This document shows positions 2,184 to 50,002 of a stretch of 50,002 nt of DNA, piece by piece. The notes under the pieces are model-generated. The model searched no databases. It was given only the letters and a program-made list of their open reading frames with translations, and was not told the DNA's origin. How positions within the stretch are numbered: position 1 is the stretch's first letter; each line of letters starts with the position of its first letter. Source of the DNA: Shigella phage phiL. The position numbers were made by a program, and so were the translations under genes. Location of the stretch: the sequence record PP134913, one strand, 5' to 3'.

Positions 2184-2592
2184 TTGTCTATACCTCGTTG
2201 TCTACGGGCGTAACTTGCCGCCCCGAAAAACATGTTACAGCAACCTGGCTAGGCGCGTCAATGTCTATAGCTGCATTTTTTATTTTTGTAACCAGTGCAA
2301 CCGATGCAACCGACTTTTTATATAAAAGTACACACATCCATTTCGACGCGTGGAATAGTATGTTTTTTATACTATGCACCATGAAATATATGCCACCCTC
2401 CAAAAATGCGGTTGCACCTATTACGCCGATTACATGCCAATATATAATATAATAAATAAATAAATATATATTATCTATCTTATTATTATATATAGATATT
2501 TTAGTATAGTTAGGCTCATCCCTTCGAGGCCATTTTGTAACACCCATGATAGTATACAACTATTACGACAATTACAACGACAATATAGACGG

Positions 2593-2610
2593 ATAGCACT
2601 TTTTGCTAAA
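2593..2610 (+). promoter_or_regulatory. motif copy in divergent control region
   Basis: ATAGCACTTTTTGCTAAA. Confidence 0.4.
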
Positions 2611-2796
2611 AATGGAGATGGCTACCAGGCGAGCCGGGTAACACTAAATCCTCCCTCTCACAATCATTGCATTCTCATCAACAAATCAACCAACTGTTGC
2701 ACACCATGCAATAATCACGTTTCATCATTCGAGATCAATCGGGATCGCAATTATTCCACATATTCCAGTATTGATGGAATAATGAGCAATTATTGG

Positions 2797-2816
2797 AATA
2801 GCATTTTTCGCTAACG
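2797..2816 (+). promoter_or_regulatory. motif copy immediately upstream of methyltransferase-like gene start
   Basis: AATAGCATTTTTCGCTAACG ending 9 nt before ATG 2825. Confidence 0.4.
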
Positions 2817-2824
2817 ACTTAGCT

Positions 2825-5686: not shown

Positions 5687-6112
5687 GTGAACGCAATGAA
5701 ATCCATCAAACTTAAATGTACTTCCGCAGACAAAATCACAGGATTTGAAGTTAACAACCTGTACAAAGGTCGAGAGCGCTACGATGGCACTCGTGAGGTT
5801 AAGTTAAAGTGCGGTAAGTATTTAAAACTTGATAAGCATGATGAATTACAGATTCACGGATCTGATGAAATCTTCTTCGCAAAATTCACTGAACTTAAAA
5901 CAAAAACACTCAAGTGTACCGGGCTTGACCATCGCAACCCAATGAAAAAATCATTCAAAGTTGGCAAGCGTTACCAGGTGGAAAGCGGTCGCGCTCTCGG
6001 TGGAGTGGCTGGTTACATCTTTGATGAGGACGGTTGCCGCTGGACATTATTCCGCGAAGAGGTTGGTTTTAGTATTGCTGACGGCACAACCTTTGAGGCC
6101 AAATACTTATAA
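5687..6112 (+). CDS. hypothetical protein (141 aa)
   Basis: RBS CAGGAGTG; promoter element 5615..5659. Confidence 0.5.
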   Translation: MNAMKSIKLKCTSADKITGFEVNNLYKGRERYDGTREVKLKCGKYLKLDKHDELQIHGSDEIFFAKFTELKTKTLKCTGLDHRNPMKKSFKVGKRYQVESGRALGGVAGYIFDEDGCRWTLFREEVGFSIADGTTFEAKYL

Positions 6113-6114
6113 CC

Positions 6115-6159
6115 AATAGCACTTTTTGCAAAACGCGTGTACCATTGGCGGTGTATCAT
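6115..6159 (+). promoter_or_regulatory. conserved promoter-like element
   Basis: AATAGCACTTTTTGCAAAA ... TATCAT in hairpin CGGTGT/ACACCG. Confidence 0.5.
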
Positions 6160-6188
6160 TCACACCGTCAACTAAGGAGTTTATTGTG

Positions 6189-7757
6189 ATGTTTAATATT
6201 AAGCCAAAACTGAATTACCAACAGATTATTGAGATCGCAAATAGCACTGGAGTGAATCCGGTGGCGATCGCAATTCGTGAAAACAGTTACGGGGATTCAG
6301 TTTCTTTTTGGCAAGATCCGATCGATATCAACAGCGGAAACGATAAGTTCCCTCTGATTTCGTTAGGTGGCGATAACCTGGTATTCGAATATGCAAAAGC
6401 AAAAGCTGAATCAGTCCAGTTCCCGGTTTCATCCGCGTATGCTCATTTTATCGGTTGCATATCAGCCGCGATGCTCGGGAAGTTTTGGGTGCAATATCAT
6501 GGAGAAGAACAGCCGACAGCGCTTTACATGGTAATTAGTCAGCCACCATCAACAGGTAAATCAGCGATTAACTCAGCGGCGATTACACCTATGCGTGCGG
6601 AGATTCAGCGACTGAATGAAGAGCGCAAAAAGGAACGTATCCGTTTAACCAGTCAGCTACGTCAGGTCGAGAAGGAAATAAAAAACGATCCGAAGGGTAA
6701 CACGACGGCGGCTCTGTACGAGGACAAAGAAAAACTGGAAGAGAAGATCAAGAAGATGGCTGATATTGTTTTCGCGGTATCAGATCCTACACCTGAAGGT
6801 CTTGCGAAAGTGGCGGCAGTGCAAGGTCACTTTTCCGTAATATCTGACGAGGCAACGGCAATCAATACATTGCTCGGGCTTACGTATGGCGGTTCAGATA
6901 AGAAATCTAACAGTGAGCTTATCCTTAAGGCGTGGGATAAAAACCATATGGAGGTCGCGCGTTCAAATCAGGACAACAACTTATCTCTTTGCCCGGTCGG
7001 TTCGATCTGCGTCATTGCGCAGGATGAAACAATCAATGGTATCATGGATGCAGGCCAGCGAGGTATCGGTGTATCCGAACGTTTCTTGTTGGTTCGCGAG
7101 GAGCCGCTTTTAGGTACTCGTATTCTTTGTGATGAAAATGGCGATGCGCTGTATAAGGAAGTCGATCGAGGATTGGTTAGTAAATATTATCGACTCGTGC
7201 ACAACATCATGAAGGAGGACAACGTTGTTCTCTCTGTGAGCCGTAATGCTATGCGTGAATTAAACCTTGCTCGCCAGGAGATGGAGCCTGATTTCGCTGC
7301 CGGGGGGAAATACTCTCACTCAATGCTTCGCGGTCATCTCGGCAAGTTCGATAAGCACGCTTTGCGTATTGCTTCAGTTCTCCACACGATCAAGAATTGG
7401 GAGGGTGAATCACCGAACCGTTCCAACCGTGAGATTGACCTTGAAACAATGCAGGAAGCGATCATGATCTTCAATGAGCTTTCCAGGACTTATCTGTCGT
7501 CTGCCAGCGCTGCCGGGTATGCTGGTGATGAGGCTGAATCTCGTAAGCTGATTGATGTTATCACTGAGATCGCGAAGAAGAACAAAGGCCGCGCACCTAT
7601 TCATAGTATTGTTGCAAAGTGCCGGAACGTTACGCCGTTCAACGGTCAACAGAAAGTATCTGAGCGAATCGACAGCCTTCTGATTACGCTCGAAGAGATG
7701 AACTACACTTGCCGAATTGATGATATTGTTTTCATCAATCCTCGACTGATGGGTTAA
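6189..7757 (+). CDS. P-loop NTPase, function unknown (523 aa)
   Basis: Walker A-like QPPSTGKS and Walker B-like VIAQDE; AAGGAG RBS before ATG 6189; promoter element 6115..6159. Confidence 0.55.
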   Translation: MFNIKPKLNYQQIIEIANSTGVNPVAIAIRENSYGDSVSFWQDPIDINSGNDKFPLISLGGDNLVFEYAKAKAESVQFPVSSAYAHFIGCISAAMLGKFWVQYHGEEQPTALYMVISQPPSTGKSAINSAAITPMRAEIQRLNEERKKERIRLTSQLRQVEKEIKNDPKGNTTAALYEDKEKLEEKIKKMADIVFAVSDPTPEGLAKVAAVQGHFSVISDEATAINTLLGLTYGGSDKKSNSELILKAWDKNHMEVARSNQDNNLSLCPVGSICVIAQDETINGIMDAGQRGIGVSERFLLVREEPLLGTRILCDENGDALYKEVDRGLVSKYYRLVHNIMKEDNVVLSVSRNAMRELNLARQEMEPDFAAGGKYSHSMLRGHLGKFDKHALRIASVLHTIKNWEGESPNRSNREIDLETMQEAIMIFNELSRTYLSSASAAGYAGDEAESRKLIDVITEIAKKNKGRAPIHSIVAKCRNVTPFNGQQKVSERIDSLLITLEEMNYTCRIDDIVFINPRLMG

Positions 7758-7761
7758 TTAT

Positions 7762-8169
7762 ATGCTTCTTCTTTTAGATCTGTTCAGGTTCTGCGAAGGT
7801 TACGACAAATACACTCGTCAGCACATAGCGAAATTTATATACGCCCACAAGGAAAGTGAGCGATTTGCTAAGGCCGCCGGGATGACTCACCGTGAATTTA
7901 CAAGCGCGCTATCTAAGGAGTTTTGCGCTCGTTGCGTTACTGATGGTTACTTGGATCGTAAGGATGGATTTTACTGGTGCAAGGGAAAGATCAAGCGCCC
8001 GGTAATGATGAAGCTGATGTGTATTGATGGCTACAACAATCGATATACGTGGGAAATGATGCATATTGGAGAAATGAGTGATGAGGAATTGTTTGGCGAA
8101 CGTAGAAACGTTGATAGATCGGAACGTCGAATTGTGCGCAAGACTCCAGCTTACGAAAGAAGAATTTGA
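7762..8169 (+). CDS. hypothetical protein (135 aa)
   Basis: Last ORF of plus early block before terminator 8284..8307. Confidence 0.4.
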   Translation: MLLLLDLFRFCEGYDKYTRQHIAKFIYAHKESERFAKAAGMTHREFTSALSKEFCARCVTDGYLDRKDGFYWCKGKIKRPVMMKLMCIDGYNNRYTWEMMHIGEMSDEELFGERRNVDRSERRIVRKTPAYERRI

Positions 8170-15219: not shown

Positions 15220-15248
15220 TTGAATCGTTGTATCGTTTACGCTATAAT
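15220..15248 (+). promoter_or_regulatory. sigma70-like promoter TTGAAT-N17-TATAAT for Cro-like gene
   Basis: Near-consensus hexamers with 17-nt spacer, about 50 nt upstream of ATG 15300. Confidence 0.6.
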
Positions 15249-15299: not shown

Positions 15300-15752
15300 A
15301 TGAATATGCAACGTATCGCAGAGTCAACTGGTGAAATCGATAAACGTCACATTAATGGTAACAACGGAACGCGACGCGGTAAAGACAAAAAGCCTCGCCA
15401 GCGCTGCGGCTTCTATATTCATAAAGAAGAAACACGAGCGGGACTGCGAGCGCGACTTGACGCTCTTATTGAATATTACGGCGGCCCAGCGGCCTGCGCA
15501 AAAGCTCTGAAGGTTAGCAATCAGACCGTGCAAGGATGGAAAGATCGCAACATGATTTCGTGGCAAGGTGCTGAAGCTGCGCATCGTGCTTACCGCCGTC
15601 AGGGGTGTAAAGGATTCCGCGCCGCATGGCTGCGATTCGACCTGAAGTTTGACGGTAACGGAAAATGCCTTGAGAAGAGATGCAAGAATAAGAAATTTAT
15701 GCGCGTCGTGAAGAAGGAAGATATCGGAACGACCAATAGCATTTTTAGTTAA
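15300..15752 (+). CDS. Cro/YdaS-like HTH DNA-binding protein
   Basis: GGPAACAKALKVSNQTVQGWKDRN HTH resembling YdaS/Cro family; AGGAGA RBS; own sigma70-like promoter. Confidence 0.55.
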   Translation: MNMQRIAESTGEIDKRHINGNNGTRRGKDKKPRQRCGFYIHKEETRAGLRARLDALIEYYGGPAACAKALKVSNQTVQGWKDRNMISWQGAEAAHRAYRRQGCKGFRAAWLRFDLKFDGNGKCLEKRCKNKKFMRVVKKEDIGTTNSIFS

Positions 15753-15812: not shown

Positions 15813-16748
15813 GTGAACGAAGAATTTATGATGTTTCAGAAAGAGGACGTATTGCCGTATATGAAGGGGTTATGGCGTGAGGCGTTCCAGTCCGTATGCG
15901 GATTACCTAACGAGGTTTTCAACAAGAAGCATCAACCTTGCCCTAACTGCGGCGGCAAAGACCGTTTTCGCTGGACTGATAATCTGAATACTCCTGGCGA
16001 CGGCGGCGCGATCTGCAACTCCTGCGGTAACGACTCCGGGATCGGTTGGTTGATGAAGTTAACTGGTATGCCGTATAGCGATTGCATAAACATCCTGGGA
16101 AGATTTCTCGGAAAAGTCCCTCAGGAATACATCGTCAAGGCAAACAAGAAAGCACGCAGGACTCCGGTGTCTGGTGTCAATGTGATGATGGCAGATCATG
16201 AAGCAGTGATGAAAGTAATGGAGCGCACAGAGAAGCGCGTAAACACACCTCTAAGCATGTTTGAATCTCTACCAACTGAATCATTCGACGTTGGCGTAAA
16301 ACGTCGCGATGATGGCAGGGAGGGCGTATTTCACACTATCCCGTGTCAACTTGTACACGAGGACGGTCTTGATGACGAGTTTTGCAATATTTTGATTATT
16401 GATGAAGAAGGAAGGGAATCGTTTTACGCTAAGAAATATACGAGTTGTTCGGTTGCCGTGACTGGTAAAACAGAAAAAGCGATCTACTTATGCCTTAATT
16501 GGATTGATGCTCAGCATATTGCATTTCACACAAAGCAAGAGGTATGGGCCTGCTTCACTCCTGAGAATCTGGAAATGGTTGCATACAGATATAAAGGGGA
16601 TCGAGAAGTAAGGGTTGCGTGCGAACCTTCAGACAAGGAGACTTTATACATGGCAGACGACCGACAATTAAAAATAATCATCCCAAATCCTGGAGGATAC
16701 CGCTCAGGGATGCAAGCCAAGTTATTCTCAGCGAGTGACCTACTCTAA
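15813..16748 (+). CDS. primase-like protein with zinc-binding motif
   Basis: CPNCGG...CNSCG zinc ribbon near N-terminus; follows helicase region. Confidence 0.5.
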   Translation: MNEEFMMFQKEDVLPYMKGLWREAFQSVCGLPNEVFNKKHQPCPNCGGKDRFRWTDNLNTPGDGGAICNSCGNDSGIGWLMKLTGMPYSDCINILGRFLGKVPQEYIVKANKKARRTPVSGVNVMMADHEAVMKVMERTEKRVNTPLSMFESLPTESFDVGVKRRDDGREGVFHTIPCQLVHEDGLDDEFCNILIIDEEGRESFYAKKYTSCSVAVTGKTEKAIYLCLNWIDAQHIAFHTKQEVWACFTPENLEMVAYRYKGDREVRVACEPSDKETLYMADDRQLKIIIPNPGGYRSGMQAKLFSASDLL

Positions 16749-19843: not shown

Positions 19844-20908
19844 TTACTTGTTTTGGTAGCGTACCCATGACGGCGTTTCAAGTTCAATCTCGCTTGCATC
19901 GCCAGCGTATCCAGGCCAAACATCCATTTCAGAGCAAGCCTTGTAGGTGTGGACTACGCTAATGTACTGACTACGACCGATCCTGATTTGCTCCATCGTC
20001 ATACGATAAGCAAGGGCGATGTAAGGCTCTTTTTTCTCCTGTGCCAGCAATCGAACTACGATCGGGATATCTTCCGGAAAATTTCCTTCAAAAGCGCCAG
20101 CCTGGATTGCACGTCGTAGCAGGTCATGCTGCAAGGCCATTTTCAGATAATACCCGTGATTGTATGCCAGTCTCGGGAACTCTAACGGGTTGGCGCTCAT
20201 CGTAGTTTTGAAGTCAGTAATAATCAGCGCTTCCGGGAAAATTACGTCTTCATACACCGGATCGCCATTCTCATCATAACCAGTCAGCACACGACCCGGT
20301 ACATTCTCTTTGTAGTCAAGATGATCGAGTCGAACCTTAACTTTGACACCGGATATCTCACCGAAGATTGAAATCTCACGCTGCGCCGTTTCACTGTTGA
20401 TGCACGCTTCATGATCCGGGTTTTGCTCAAGGATGGCTCTCATCTTCATGCAGGCGTCGTATTTGTCGGCGTCAACGAGTTTCTTTCCTTCAGCACGCGC
20501 CTCAGCTTCTGCGATCAGTTCAATCAGGTATTGAACGTTGAGTTCTTCACCACAATCAACCATCATTTTGATGAGGTCAGGGTACTGTTTACCGGATGTA
20601 CCTTTCAGTCCAAAAGATTTTAACTTTGCTGCCAGCGCCGCCTGCGAAGTAATCAGATCCTTAAACTCTGATGGAGCCGGGCAGCGGGAATACGATGCAG
20701 TAAACAGATCGCGACTCTCAAAGTTAGTATGCGACTGAGTACCAAATTCCAGCGCTTTAGTTGTCTCGTTCTTCTTGAATCGCCAGTTAGCCGGGCAAGT
20801 CTGATAGATTTCAGCAAGGCTAGATCCGCTTACATACTCCGCAGCCCAACCTTCATTGCTGTGATACTCGTCGTTAGAAAGCTGGCTTGATGTGAATACC
20901 TGGAACAT
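19844..20908 (-). CDS. PD-(D/E)xK exonuclease (RecE/YqaJ-like)
   Basis: ITDFKT D-x-K motif; adjacent to Erf; sigma70-like promoter upstream. Confidence 0.65.
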   Translation of the reverse strand: MFQVFTSSQLSNDEYHSNEGWAAEYVSGSSLAEIYQTCPANWRFKKNETTKALEFGTQSHTNFESRDLFTASYSRCPAPSEFKDLITSQAALAAKLKSFGLKGTSGKQYPDLIKMMVDCGEELNVQYLIELIAEAEARAEGKKLVDADKYDACMKMRAILEQNPDHEACINSETAQREISIFGEISGVKVKVRLDHLDYKENVPGRVLTGYDENGDPVYEDVIFPEALIITDFKTTMSANPLEFPRLAYNHGYYLKMALQHDLLRRAIQAGAFEGNFPEDIPIVVRLLAQEKKEPYIALAYRMTMEQIRIGRSQYISVVHTYKACSEMDVWPGYAGDASEIELETPSWVRYQNK

Positions 20909-20939
20909 TGTGTTTATCTCCTTCGTTTACGATGGATTC

Positions 20940-20967
20940 ATTATAGCCATTAACAGCGTTTAGTCAA
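20940..20967 (-). promoter_or_regulatory. sigma70-like promoter TTGACT-N16-TATAAT for exonuclease/Erf/SSB block
   Basis: Near-consensus hexamers on minus strand about 30 nt upstream of ATG 20908. Confidence 0.6.
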
Positions 20968-21376
20968 CCTGATACATGTAATTGGTGTGTAATAGCGTGT
21001 CTATATCGCTCAAGTTACAACCAGCATTAACAGAATCAATGGCTTAAGTATGTTTTTATGTTATGTCTATTGTGTAATGCTTGTAACCGCTTTTTCTTAG
21101 AAATGCAGAGATACCTACAAATGGAATCCAGATTGATTAAATTTTGAACATATATGATAGAGGTTTGACGAATCAATCAAATCACCTGTTACACGATAGA
21201 CAACTGTTACACAACAATAATTATATATATAAAGCTAAAATTAAATATTATCTATCTATATATATTATATAGAGTTTTTATCATATCTCTCTGCTGTCGG
21301 ATGTGGTGGATTTTGTAACACCCGCTCCGGTTACAAAAATAGACACCTGTTACACGAAAAAATTGTAATAGTGCTA

Positions 21377-21405
21377 TTGCAATAAAAGTAAATGCGACAT
21401 ACAAT
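21377..21405 (+). promoter_or_regulatory. sigma70-like promoter TTGCAA-N17-TACAAT for lipoprotein gene
   Basis: Hexamers with 17-nt spacer about 25 nt upstream of start. Confidence 0.55.
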
Positions 21406-21434
21406 GCAATTACACTAACGACGAGGACATGCAA

Positions 21435-21665
21435 ATGAAAAAGTTAATCACCATTATCGCTGCGGCAGTCATCCTGACTGGTTGCTCTCAGAATATTAAA
21501 AATGGAGACTGCGTTACTTACTCTTACGGATCTTGCATGATGCGATTCGTTGACGGCAGGAAGATTCCGGCTGGCGAAATCGATATGCGATTCAAAGGTC
21601 TGTCATCCGACGACGATCAGGGTAACTTCAGCGGCAAGGTATCAATCAAAACTAAAGAGTGGTAA
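21435..21665 (+). CDS. small lipoprotein, candidate superinfection-exclusion protein
   Basis: Signal peptide with lipobox LTGC; own sigma70-like promoter 21377..21405. Confidence 0.55.
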   Translation: MKKLITIIAAAVILTGCSQNIKNGDCVTYSYGSCMMRFVDGRKIPAGEIDMRFKGLSSDDDQGNFSGKVSIKTKEW

Positions 21666-43546: not shown

Positions 43547-43750
43547 TCAATCATTAATTTCAAATTGACCCTTAGTCATATCTTGCGGGTAATCAATCTC
43601 ATGCAGGTTTCCATCGTCGCCGTACACATATACGAGTCTCTTTGCTTTACTAACCTTTTCCACATCGTAAGAGCAACCAGCAGAGAAAGCCTCGCCATTG
43701 CGTGACGTTACGCATCGAACCTGATCGCCTTTCCTCGGTAAATTAGCCAT
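43547..43750 (-). CDS. hypothetical protein (67 aa)
   Basis: ORF in early block. Confidence 0.5.
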   Translation of the reverse strand: MANLPRKGDQVRCVTSRNGEAFSAGCSYDVEKVSKAKRLVYVYGDDGNLHEIDYPQDMTKGQFEIND

Positions 43751-43980
43751 TATTCGTAATCCCCTTCTTTGTTACCTACACGCCCGGCAATATACCCTGC
43801 AGTCCAGACAAATTTGTAGCGATCGATGAGTAATTCGACCTTTTTGTGGTGAGCAGAAATAACGTCAATCATGATCTTGTCGTTTTTCCGATCTTCTTTT
43901 TTCATGCCACTGACGAATTTATTTAATTCCTTCGCCGCGCGCTTTACCACGTTCCATTCCGCTTCACTTAAACCGAACAT
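43750..43980 (-). CDS. hypothetical protein (76 aa)
   Basis: Overlapping start/stop with neighbours. Confidence 0.5.
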   Translation of the reverse strand: MFGLSEAEWNVVKRAAKELNKFVSGMKKEDRKNDKIMIDVISAHHKKVELLIDRYKFVWTAGYIAGRVGNKEGDYE

Positions 43981-49515: not shown

Positions 49516-49684
49516 CGCAAGTGATTTCATTTGATGTGATTGGTAGCAATACGTTTCCAACCATCACGAAAGTAGTAACCTGGTTTCCGGTTTCATGGCA
49601 TCTCTCTTTTACCTCTCCGCAGCCGGACACTACCATGATAGCCAGGGCGACCGCCGCCATCATGCAAATCAGAATGCGCATCAT
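49511..49684 (-). CDS. small lipoprotein (57 aa)
   Basis: Signal peptide MMRILICMMAAVALAIMVVSGC with lipobox; GGGAG RBS. Confidence 0.5.
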   Translation of the reverse strand: MMRILICMMAAVALAIMVVSGCGEVKERCHETGNQVTTFVMVGNVLLPITSNEITCE

Positions 49685-50002
49685 TCGAACGCTCCCGCAC
49701 ACAGTAGTAACATGATTACGATCCCAACAATGGCATGACCCATGCAGAAGAACCAGACGGCAGACCATAATGCAATCGTGTTGAAGTTCATTTCAGTACC
49801 TCGATCTTGTTGTCGCCGATTGAGTTTTCTACTACCGATTGCGGGTCATCGCCAGGAACGCGCATGTAGAAATTACTCACCGCCGTGAAGTTCCATTGAC
49901 CGCGCCACTTGAAATAGACTCCGTGTTTTGCGCCCATTGCGTAGTGAGTGGATTTTGCCGGGATCATGTGCCCGTTAACGCGGGTTAGTTGAGTTAGGTT
50001 GC
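49672..50002. repeat. Wrap-around overlap, copy 2 (genome unit length 49,671 bp)
   Basis: Matches 1..331; A at 49798, 49834, 49875 where copy 1 has C. Confidence 0.9.
49788..50002 (-). CDS. partial second copy of 117..344 ORF (runs off window end)
   Basis: Overlap duplicate; carries the three C-to-A differences. Confidence 0.4.
   Translation of the reverse strand, partial: NLTQLTRVNGHMIPAKSTHYAMGAKHGVYFKWRGQWNFTAVSNFYMRVPGDDPQSVVENSIGDNKIEVLK

Follow-up and report, generated by a model that had tools for sequence, protein, structure and literature searches.

The genome of Shigella phage phiL (PP134913) is a complete Tunavirus genome (T1-like, Drexlerviridae). In the 50,002-nucleotide stretch that we analyzed (the window), recE and a Cor-like lipoprotein gene are separated by a noncoding gap of 520 to 526 bp (20909-21428). 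The gap and its flanks give full-length matches of 88 to 94% identity to Shigella phage SH6, JMPW1, T1, and ~60 further records, and most GenBank records carry no annotated gene in the gap. A first-pass annotation had described the gap as parting a leftward exonuclease/Erf/SSB block from a rightward lipoprotein operon and as carrying outward-facing, back-to-back promoters, repeats, and an AT-rich module. This description was confirmed, with recE and the lipoprotein open reading frame (ORF) flanking a noncoding interval. The same annotation offered two possible functions, that of an operator-controlled early switch and that of a replication origin; the comparative evidence favors the origin and leaves the operator switch as the weaker of the two. 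We estimate a probability of roughly 55% that an iteron-type replication origin occupies the gap, between outward promoters, and that this genome has two such origin-like modules, paralogous to each other.

The hexamers GTTACA and TGTAAC occur 24 times in the window, and 7 of these copies fall inside the gap, where 0.25 would be expected; all three exact copies of CTGTTACAC in the 50-kb window sit there as well. The longer repeat CACCTGTTACACGA is found at 21183-21196 and 21344-21357, with a third copy, CAACTGTTACACAA, at 21201-21214 and the related TTTTGTAACACCC at 21311-21323. The repeats reported in the first-pass annotation thus exist, but the two copies given as 21184-21197 and 21345-21358 were off by 1 nucleotide, the related one given as 21313-21325 was off by 2, and the third copy was overlooked. 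The iterons lie on both sides of an AT-rich core (21213-21292), at 21188 (+) and 21206 (+) on one side and at 21314 (−), 21330 (+), and 21349 (+) on the other. GTTACA at 21206 (+) and TGTAAC at 21314 (GTTACA on the minus strand) form a pair pointing inward across the core, and within the arrays the words are phased 9 to 10 bp apart. The core, which includes TATTATCTATCT at 21246-21257, ranks second in the genome for low nearest-neighbor duplex stability, at −102 kcal per 100 bp where the genome mean is −136.7 (standard deviation, 6.7), a departure of more than 5 standard deviations. The AT-rich tract noted earlier, with its minimum of 10% GC, is one of only two outliers in the genome-wide stability scan, the other being the second module; the third-ranked window stands at −115 kcal per 100 bp. 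The coordinates of these and the other features discussed below are given in Table 1.

Table 1. Features of the gap, its flanks, the second module, and the candidate replication genes (window coordinates)
Feature	Position	Strand	Description
PrecE, sigma-70 promoter of the recE-erf-ssb operon	20940-20967	minus	TTGACT-16-TATAAT, 11/12; predicted transcription start ~20933
Promoter-proximal repeat sites	20988-21087		TGTAAT 20988, GTTACA 21014, TGTCTAT 21064, TGTAAT 21073, TGTAAC 21082
Left iteron array beside AT core	21183-21214	plus	CACCTGTTACACG-ATAGACA-ACTGTTACACAA; TGT-type words 9 bp apart
AT-rich core, putative DNA unwinding element	21213-21292 (approx.)		Contains ATATTATCTATCT; lowest 60-nt window 10% GC
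Right iteron array	21311-21357		TTTTGTAACACCC (inverted), GGTTACAAAAA, ATAGACA-CCTGTTACACGA
Rightward promoter of the lipoprotein operon	21368-21405	plus	ATAGTGC, then TTGCAA-17-TACAAT (21377-21405), 9/12; predicted start ~21412
recE	19844-20908	minus	PDDEXK domain; reading frame ends at 20908
Cor-like lipoprotein gene	ORF from 21429; start 21435 in relatives' annotation	plus	Pfam PF24052
Second, paralogous module	2184-2824		641-bp gap between divergent early genes; collinear with 21140-21400
DUF3987 helicase (MCM-like, superfamily 6), candidate initiator	6126-7757 (feature start also given as 6198)	plus	543 codons; Pfam PF13148
Primase, T7-type zinc ribbon	15813-16748	plus	Pfam PF08273, E = 5.5e-16

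Other elements of the gap carried less weight. The inverted repeat GATTGATT/AATCAATC, placed at 21133-21179 in the earlier description, does exist (21131-21138 and 21171-21178), but the region holds 36 short inverted pairs, this one included, and it is not conserved outside Tunavirus, being absent from SRT8 (Sertoctavirus) and IME347 (Badaguanvirus), so that it is probably a chance occurrence. Two familiar kinds of origin were also considered. A DnaA-dependent, oriC-type origin is ruled against by the lack of a DnaA-box cluster and of GATC sites: the gap holds no exact DnaA box, only three one-mismatch matches to the relaxed TTWTNCACA consensus, and no GATC site, where 2.75 would be expected. 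A lambda-type origin, with its iterons inside an initiator gene, does not suit a gap that is noncoding and whose ORFs are broken or evolve like noncoding DNA.

Selection was measured on an alignment of 16 distinct Tunavirus sequences, in which the mean column conservation was 0.935 in the gap, against 0.78 at the third codon positions of recE, and the stretch 21200-21280, together with every GTTACA/TGTAAC core, was essentially invariant. Column conservation in the left iteron array was 0.96 to 1.0. This alignment shows the gap to be under strong purifying selection. That the selected feature is a concealed small protein gene or a structured RNA seems to us extremely improbable. All 16 sequences preserve a 46-codon ORF with a TTG start (21036-21176, minus strand), and a few GenBank records annotate hypothetical proteins in the gap, but the variable sites of this ORF are distributed 9/16/15 over the three codon positions, its product exists in 14 variants among the 16 genomes, and net indels disrupt its frame in SRT8 and IME347. 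Of the other two ORFs of the gap, one is interrupted in 4 and the other in 7 of the 16 sequences. As for RNA, an Rfam scan of the gap returned sub-threshold snoRNA and miRNA noise only, and the two arms of the TTTTGTAAC/GTTACAAAA hairpin are noncomplementary in SRT8.

The same architecture is found well beyond Tunavirus. We fetched 73 loci from IMG/VR and GenBank, covering the Tunavirinae, Tempevirinae, Rogunavirinae, and Webervirus. Upstream of the recE operon, Mishu (Tlsvirus), G29-2 (Hanrivervirus), KP36 (Webervirus), and Sd1 (Wilsonroadvirus) each have a gene-free gap of 410 to 590 bp. Most of the 73 loci share such a gap, with an AT core ~310 to 350 bp upstream of the operon; the 60-nt window of lowest GC content (8 to 20%) lies ~300 to 355 bp upstream of recE. 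The exceptions were loci in which inserted genes place the core further upstream, a few incomplete contigs, and two loci without a clear core. In KP36 the upstream neighbor of the module is the primase gene, which is on the same strand and has a terminator; what is conserved, then, is the module upstream of recE rather than a divergent gene arrangement. The short word is particular to each lineage and is present in 7 to 13 copies per 560 bp where ~1 would be expected: GTAAC in the T1 group and the Rogunavirinae, GTAAT in SRT8, GTAAG in Webervirus, and GAACA/GAAAC (TGTTYC) in the Tempevirinae.

An alignment of the phiL window with T1, IME347, SRT8, and BrunoManser (like SRT8, a Sertoctavirus) showed how the word varies. 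The positions of the sites are conserved, yet six of the seven TGTAAC/GTTACA sites read TGTAAT/ATTACA in both Sertoctaviruses, and IME347 has TGTCAC/GTGACA at three of the seven homologous sites. The change embraces the promoter-proximal sites, whose GTTACA/TGTAAC cores are invariant in Tunavirus and whose homologous positions in SRT8 and BrunoManser carry ATTACA/TGTAAT, as well as the left iteron array, which has TGTAAT in Sertoctavirus and TGTCAC/TGTAAC in IME347. Across these alignments the repeat word is seen to change in concert between lineages. Because the word differs among phages that all infect laboratory strains of Escherichia coli (T1, IME347, SRT8, and BrunoManser), a host protein is unlikely to be the reader of the variable base, which implies a phage-encoded, coevolving binder.

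These data bear directly on whether the gap is a structural site, bound by host nucleoid proteins (H-NS, IHF, or Fis) or serving as a recombination or processing hotspot for RecE/Erf. The extreme AT content would suit such a site, as would the constant position of the module next to the recombination operon, and the IHF core consensus WATCAANNNNTTR is matched exactly once (AATCAATGGCTTA, at 21034-21046 on the plus strand), at a site that is conserved in Tunavirus. We nevertheless regard this explanation as very unlikely, given that T1 differs in its word from SRT8 and BrunoManser, which share its E. coli host strains, that the IHF match is lost in SRT8 and IME347, and that the second module is not beside recombination genes. 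The DnaA-box and GATC counts given above likewise speak against it.

The second module occupies a gap between divergent early genes near the left end of the window and is probably, to judge from its shared motifs and layout, a further copy of this type of element. Its AT core is at ~2440-2500, and no other 100-bp stretch of the genome is less stable than the one in this module. The repeats CACCTATTACGCC (2415) and CAACTATTACGAC (2557) are 142 bp apart, and in the gap the spacing between CACCTGTTACACG and its other copy is 143 bp. The AT cores of both modules contain the 13-mer ATATTATCTATCT, the 14-mer ATTTTGTAACACCC recurs in both at an equal relative position, and a canonical ATAGCACTTTTTGCTAAAA element (ATAGCAC...TAAAA type) at 2593 matches the position of ATAGTGCTATTGCAATAAAAG at the rightward promoter of the gap. 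In five Tunavirinae (the phiL window, LeonhardEuler, SRT8, BrunoManser, and IME347), the two windows of lowest GC content in the genome are exactly the two modules. KP36 also has a second module, with an AT core nearly identical to that of its first and with KP36's own GTAAGAT words. A feature annotated there as "hypothetical protein gp01" (NC_029099, 110-415) overlaps this second AT-rich/iteron module and is probably not a gene.

Both good promoters of the gap read away from the AT core. PrecE, for which the earlier coordinates proved exact, is an 11/12 match and the sole sigma-70 consensus match of at least 11/12 in a scan of the whole genome. It is invariant in the 16 Tunavirus sequences and is annotated as a promoter in OL960578, and its TTGACTAAA is retained in SRT8 and IME347 and across genera from T1 through the Tempevirinae. 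The rightward promoter is present where it had been predicted but is weaker, and its 9/12 match is by itself at chance level (9 promoter-like sites in the gap scan versus 8.8 expected in shuffles). It is conserved in Tunavirus and aligns with the canonical element of module 2, and OL960578 annotates a rightward promoter nearby (~21340-21369 of the window). The only promoter-like sequence pointing inward is TAGACA-16-AATTAT (21197-21224, plus strand), again a 9/12 match at chance level; an origin primed by transcription, of the T7 primary or T4 oriF/oriG type, would have a promoter directed into its AT-rich unwinding element.

The rightward promoter (ATAGTGCTATTGCAATAAAAG) is a degenerate relative of a family-wide element, the 19-mer ATAGCACnnnTTGnTAAAA. 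The latter corresponds to the 21-nt direct repeat aaATAGCACnnnTTGnTAAAA reported in TLS, T1, Rtp, and Rogue1 (PMC11447400). ATAGTGCTATTGCAATAAAAG holds the position at which module 2 and other genera have a canonical copy, but it deviates by indels, goes undetected at ≤3 mismatches, and has the normal 17-bp sigma-70 spacing, whereas canonical copies lie ~19 to 22 bp from TATAGT. The canonical element with TATAGT is found upstream of cor in phage G29-2 and in several other genera. In the window, ATAGCACnnnTTGnTAAAA has 26 sites at ≤3 mismatches where 2 would be expected (e.g., 678, 1417, 2593, 3564, 12759, 32292, 46163, and 49496). They lie mostly upstream of genes and in the direction of the gene. 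A short GC hairpin usually comes next, with a TATAGT-like hexamer ~19 to 22 bp downstream of the element, too far for a normal −35/−10 pair. These sites may mark a phage-specific promoter class. Elsewhere, a TTGAAT-17-TATAAT sequence (10/12) at 15220-15248 (plus strand), in the short divergent gap between a SNF2-like helicase gene and the Cro-like regulator/primase operon, is likely the promoter of that operon.

The promoters raise the alternative that the gap is a transcription control region, in which the repeats would be operator or enhancer sites of a phage regulator that switches PrecE and the lipoprotein promoter and the AT tract would be curved or upstream-activating DNA. The repeats are indeed flanked by two conserved outward promoters, each of the two modules heads early operons in the Tunavirinae, and some sites are 20 to 50 bp upstream of −35 hexamers. 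Moreover, a Cro/YdaS-like helix-turn-helix (HTH) protein is encoded between the primase and the helicase, and the concerted word change calls for a phage-encoded binder that need not be an initiator. However, none of the repeats overlaps a −35 or −10 hexamer, as the operators of a lambda OR-type switch would, the nearest words ending ~20 bp upstream of each −35, and the AT core and most sites are 220 to 390 bp from PrecE. The KP36 module has no divergent partner gene, and no regulator is encoded at the locus itself, which is flanked by recE and the lipoprotein gene. The recognition helix of the HTH protein, the sole HTH regulator in the replication module, is identical in SRT8 (GTAAT) and IME347 (GTAAC/GTCAC), and the promoter of the regulator contains no repeat word. 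Finally, an extreme and sequence-invariant 80-bp AT core would be unusual for an operator. We consider this explanation unlikely, though a role in transcription could coexist with origin function.

The origin interpretation calls for an initiator, and no initiator of the DnaA, lambda O, or RepA type was found among the subset of the proteome that was scanned against Pfam and PHROGs. By analogy, the repeats are most plausibly read by the DUF3987 helicase. Its AlphaFold2 model (35 homologues) has a mean predicted local distance difference test score of 89, and its best fold matches in the PDB are MCM2-7 subunits (Foldseek E values down to 2e-5). Residues 444-513, at the C terminus of the model, are predicted to follow the helix-strand-helix-helix-strand-strand pattern of a winged helix. 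A sequence search of the PDB with the helicase and the Cro-like regulator gave no hits. Profile analyses have assigned DUF3987 to helicase superfamily 6 (SF6) with a C-terminal winged helix (PMC4889955), and the biochemical study of a PriCT-DUF3987 helicase (PMC11724360) agrees with the assignment of the phage protein. The primase is presumed to be its partner at the origin. The C-terminal domain of the helicase is 79% identical to that of IME347, which has the same word, and 69% identical to that of SRT8, which has a different one. It is also relatively closer in the Rogunavirinae (GTAAC) than in the Tempevirinae, whereas most of the other replication-region proteins tested follow the opposite trend. 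No residue of this domain was diagnostic of the repeat word.

Three other proteins were considered as binders and rejected. The Cro/YdaS-like regulator (15300-15752) fails because it has the same recognition helix where the repeat words differ, as described above. A 138-amino-acid protein encoded just upstream of the helicase (5696-6112, plus strand; phrog_2684) has a conserved C-terminal half and a hypervariable N-terminal region of ~63 residues. In a three-way comparison it was the strongest outlier of the proteome for the pattern in which Sertoctavirus differs and T1 equals IME347; the second strongest was a 76-amino-acid early ORF (43750-43980, minus strand), with 17 Sertoctavirus-specific positions versus 5 and 5. 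The N-terminal domain of the 138-amino-acid protein, however, varies within one repeat class in TLS-like phages, and its T1 type also occurs in Webervirus, whose word is GTAAG. A 135-amino-acid HTH-like protein encoded downstream of the helicase (7762-8169) has the same HTH in L116 (GTAAC) and in TLS-like phages (GAACA).

Origin function is favored because the repeats flank an extreme AT core in an architecture that is kept throughout the family, even in KP36 with its nondivergent upstream gene, and because the word changes in concert, the module has a paralogue, and a winged-helix, MCM-like helicase is among the products of the phage genome. We infer that replication would begin in the gap when a phage-encoded, sequence-specific protein binds 5- to 6-nt words (GTAAC/TGTAAC core) in the short phased arrays flanking the ~80-bp AT-rich core. 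The binder would most plausibly be the MCM-like helicase, acting through its C-terminal winged helix as do the Rep proteins of the staphylococcal pathogenicity islands (SaPIs). Binding would melt the AT core and load the helicase, whereupon the phage primase would prime and host polymerase III would extend. Outward transcription from PrecE and the lipoprotein promoter might add negative supercoiling that aids melting.

Several observations weigh against this interpretation. The C-terminal domain of the helicase tracks the repeat class weakly and its putative recognition helix is acidic, and covariation across the candidates (the HTH regulator, the 138- and 135-amino-acid proteins, and the helicase C terminus) singled out no repeat-binding protein. 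The gap module is 13 kb from the helicase gene and module 2 lies 3.3 kb upstream of that gene, whereas the SaPI ori is immediately 3′ of rep (PMC9371898). Of the repeat words, only some recur in module 2, which in SRT8 has mostly TAGACA and TGTATAAG. Since both modules are at the heads of early operons in the Tunavirinae, a transcriptional role fits their location equally well. The cumulative GC skew, which the first-pass annotation had suggested computing, gave no origin signal and was uninformative because the skew tracks gene orientation. Lastly, replication may be largely recombination driven, since T1-like phages carry RecE/Erf/SSB.

A broader hypothesis, which we put forward tentatively and consider rather unlikely, is that the genome of each T1-like phage has two paralogous origin modules, each heading an early operon, and that the self-loading MCM-like helicase or an unrecognized partner reads a one-base code, GTAA-C/T/G by lineage. 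The modules would then double as origins and early-transcription enhancers, in the manner of baculovirus homologous regions, and the word variants would constitute orthogonal origin/initiator pairs.

Some further observations concern the genome and the borders of the gap. The genome unit is 49,671 bp, and bases 1-331 recur at the end of the window (49672-50002), which fits a circularly permuted or wrapped assembly. The lipoprotein more likely starts at 21435 than at 21429; a GAGGA ribosome-binding site lies 7 nt before the ATG at 21435, and translation from there yields the signal peptide typical of lipoproteins, MKKLITIIAAAVILTGC. The whole gap is bracketed by a perfect inverted repeat of 11 nt, CTCGTCGTTAG/CTAACGACGAG (20867-20877 and 21415-21425), with one arm within the start of the recE coding sequence and the other in the lipoprotein 5′ leader; chance alone would give ~0.05 such pairs over this length.

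T1 belongs to the original set of T phages and is notorious for contaminating laboratories. The 2024 reannotation of TLS (PMC11447400) and the 2020 paper on SU57 (PMC7718038) looked for an origin and found none, and the accessible literature (the 2004 T1 genome paper being outside its scope) contains no mapped origin or transcription start map for the T1 family. The present analysis supplies two precise candidate origin sites and a candidate class of initiator. As close relatives that share a host provide natural specificity variants (GTAAC in T1 versus GTAAT in SRT8), the question can be addressed directly by swaps. If the interpretation is correct, the SaPI-type mechanism, with a self-loading MCM-like helicase and an iteron/AT-rich ori, would extend to a large family of virulent enterobacterial phages and would offer a handle for engineering or blocking the replication of T1-like phages.

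Among known systems, SPP1 oriL/oriR and lambda ori also place iterons beside an AT-rich unwinding region, and SPP1 has two origins served by one initiator, with an exonuclease/annealase/SSB module nearby. The iterons of lambda and of SPP1 oriL, however, are inside the gene for a dedicated origin-binding protein (O or G38P), whereas the T1-like modules are intergenic and their binder is a candidate only. Satellite phage P4 has two cis regions, ori and crr, that share an octamer iteron (TGTTCACC type) read by the C-terminal winged helix of alpha. Like the T1-like phages it thus has two iteron regions per genome, and its word resembles the TGTTCAC/TGTTACAC words of phiL and of TLS-like phages. 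P4 alpha is a superfamily 3 (SF3) primase-helicase fusion, in contrast to the separate SF6-type helicase and primase of phiL, and P4 ori and crr have no prominent central AT core flanked on both sides; we liken the two systems by description only.

By analogy, the closest known system is the SaPI ori with its Rep, especially the SF6/MCM-like Rep2/SaPIbov1 type. SaPI Rep helicases (SF3 or SF6) are self-loading, and their C-terminal winged helix recognizes 6 to 12 penta- or hexanucleotide iterons around a central AT-rich region (PMC9371898). Apart from the distance between module and helicase gene, the phage differs in having two paralogous modules per genome, the gap module lying between active-looking promoters, and in being a virulent siphovirus of enterobacteria whose helicase-repeat binding is putative, with weak covariation. 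The likenesses are as follows. The 520 bp of the gap contain seven GTTACA/TGTAAC hexamers, together with related TGTAAT/TGTCTA words, on both sides of an AT-rich center and with at least one oppositely oriented pair. In both systems the iteron word varies among related elements, and both kinds of element carry genes for an AAA+ helicase that ends in a winged helix (in phiL, the SF6-type DUF3987 protein) and for a separate primase.

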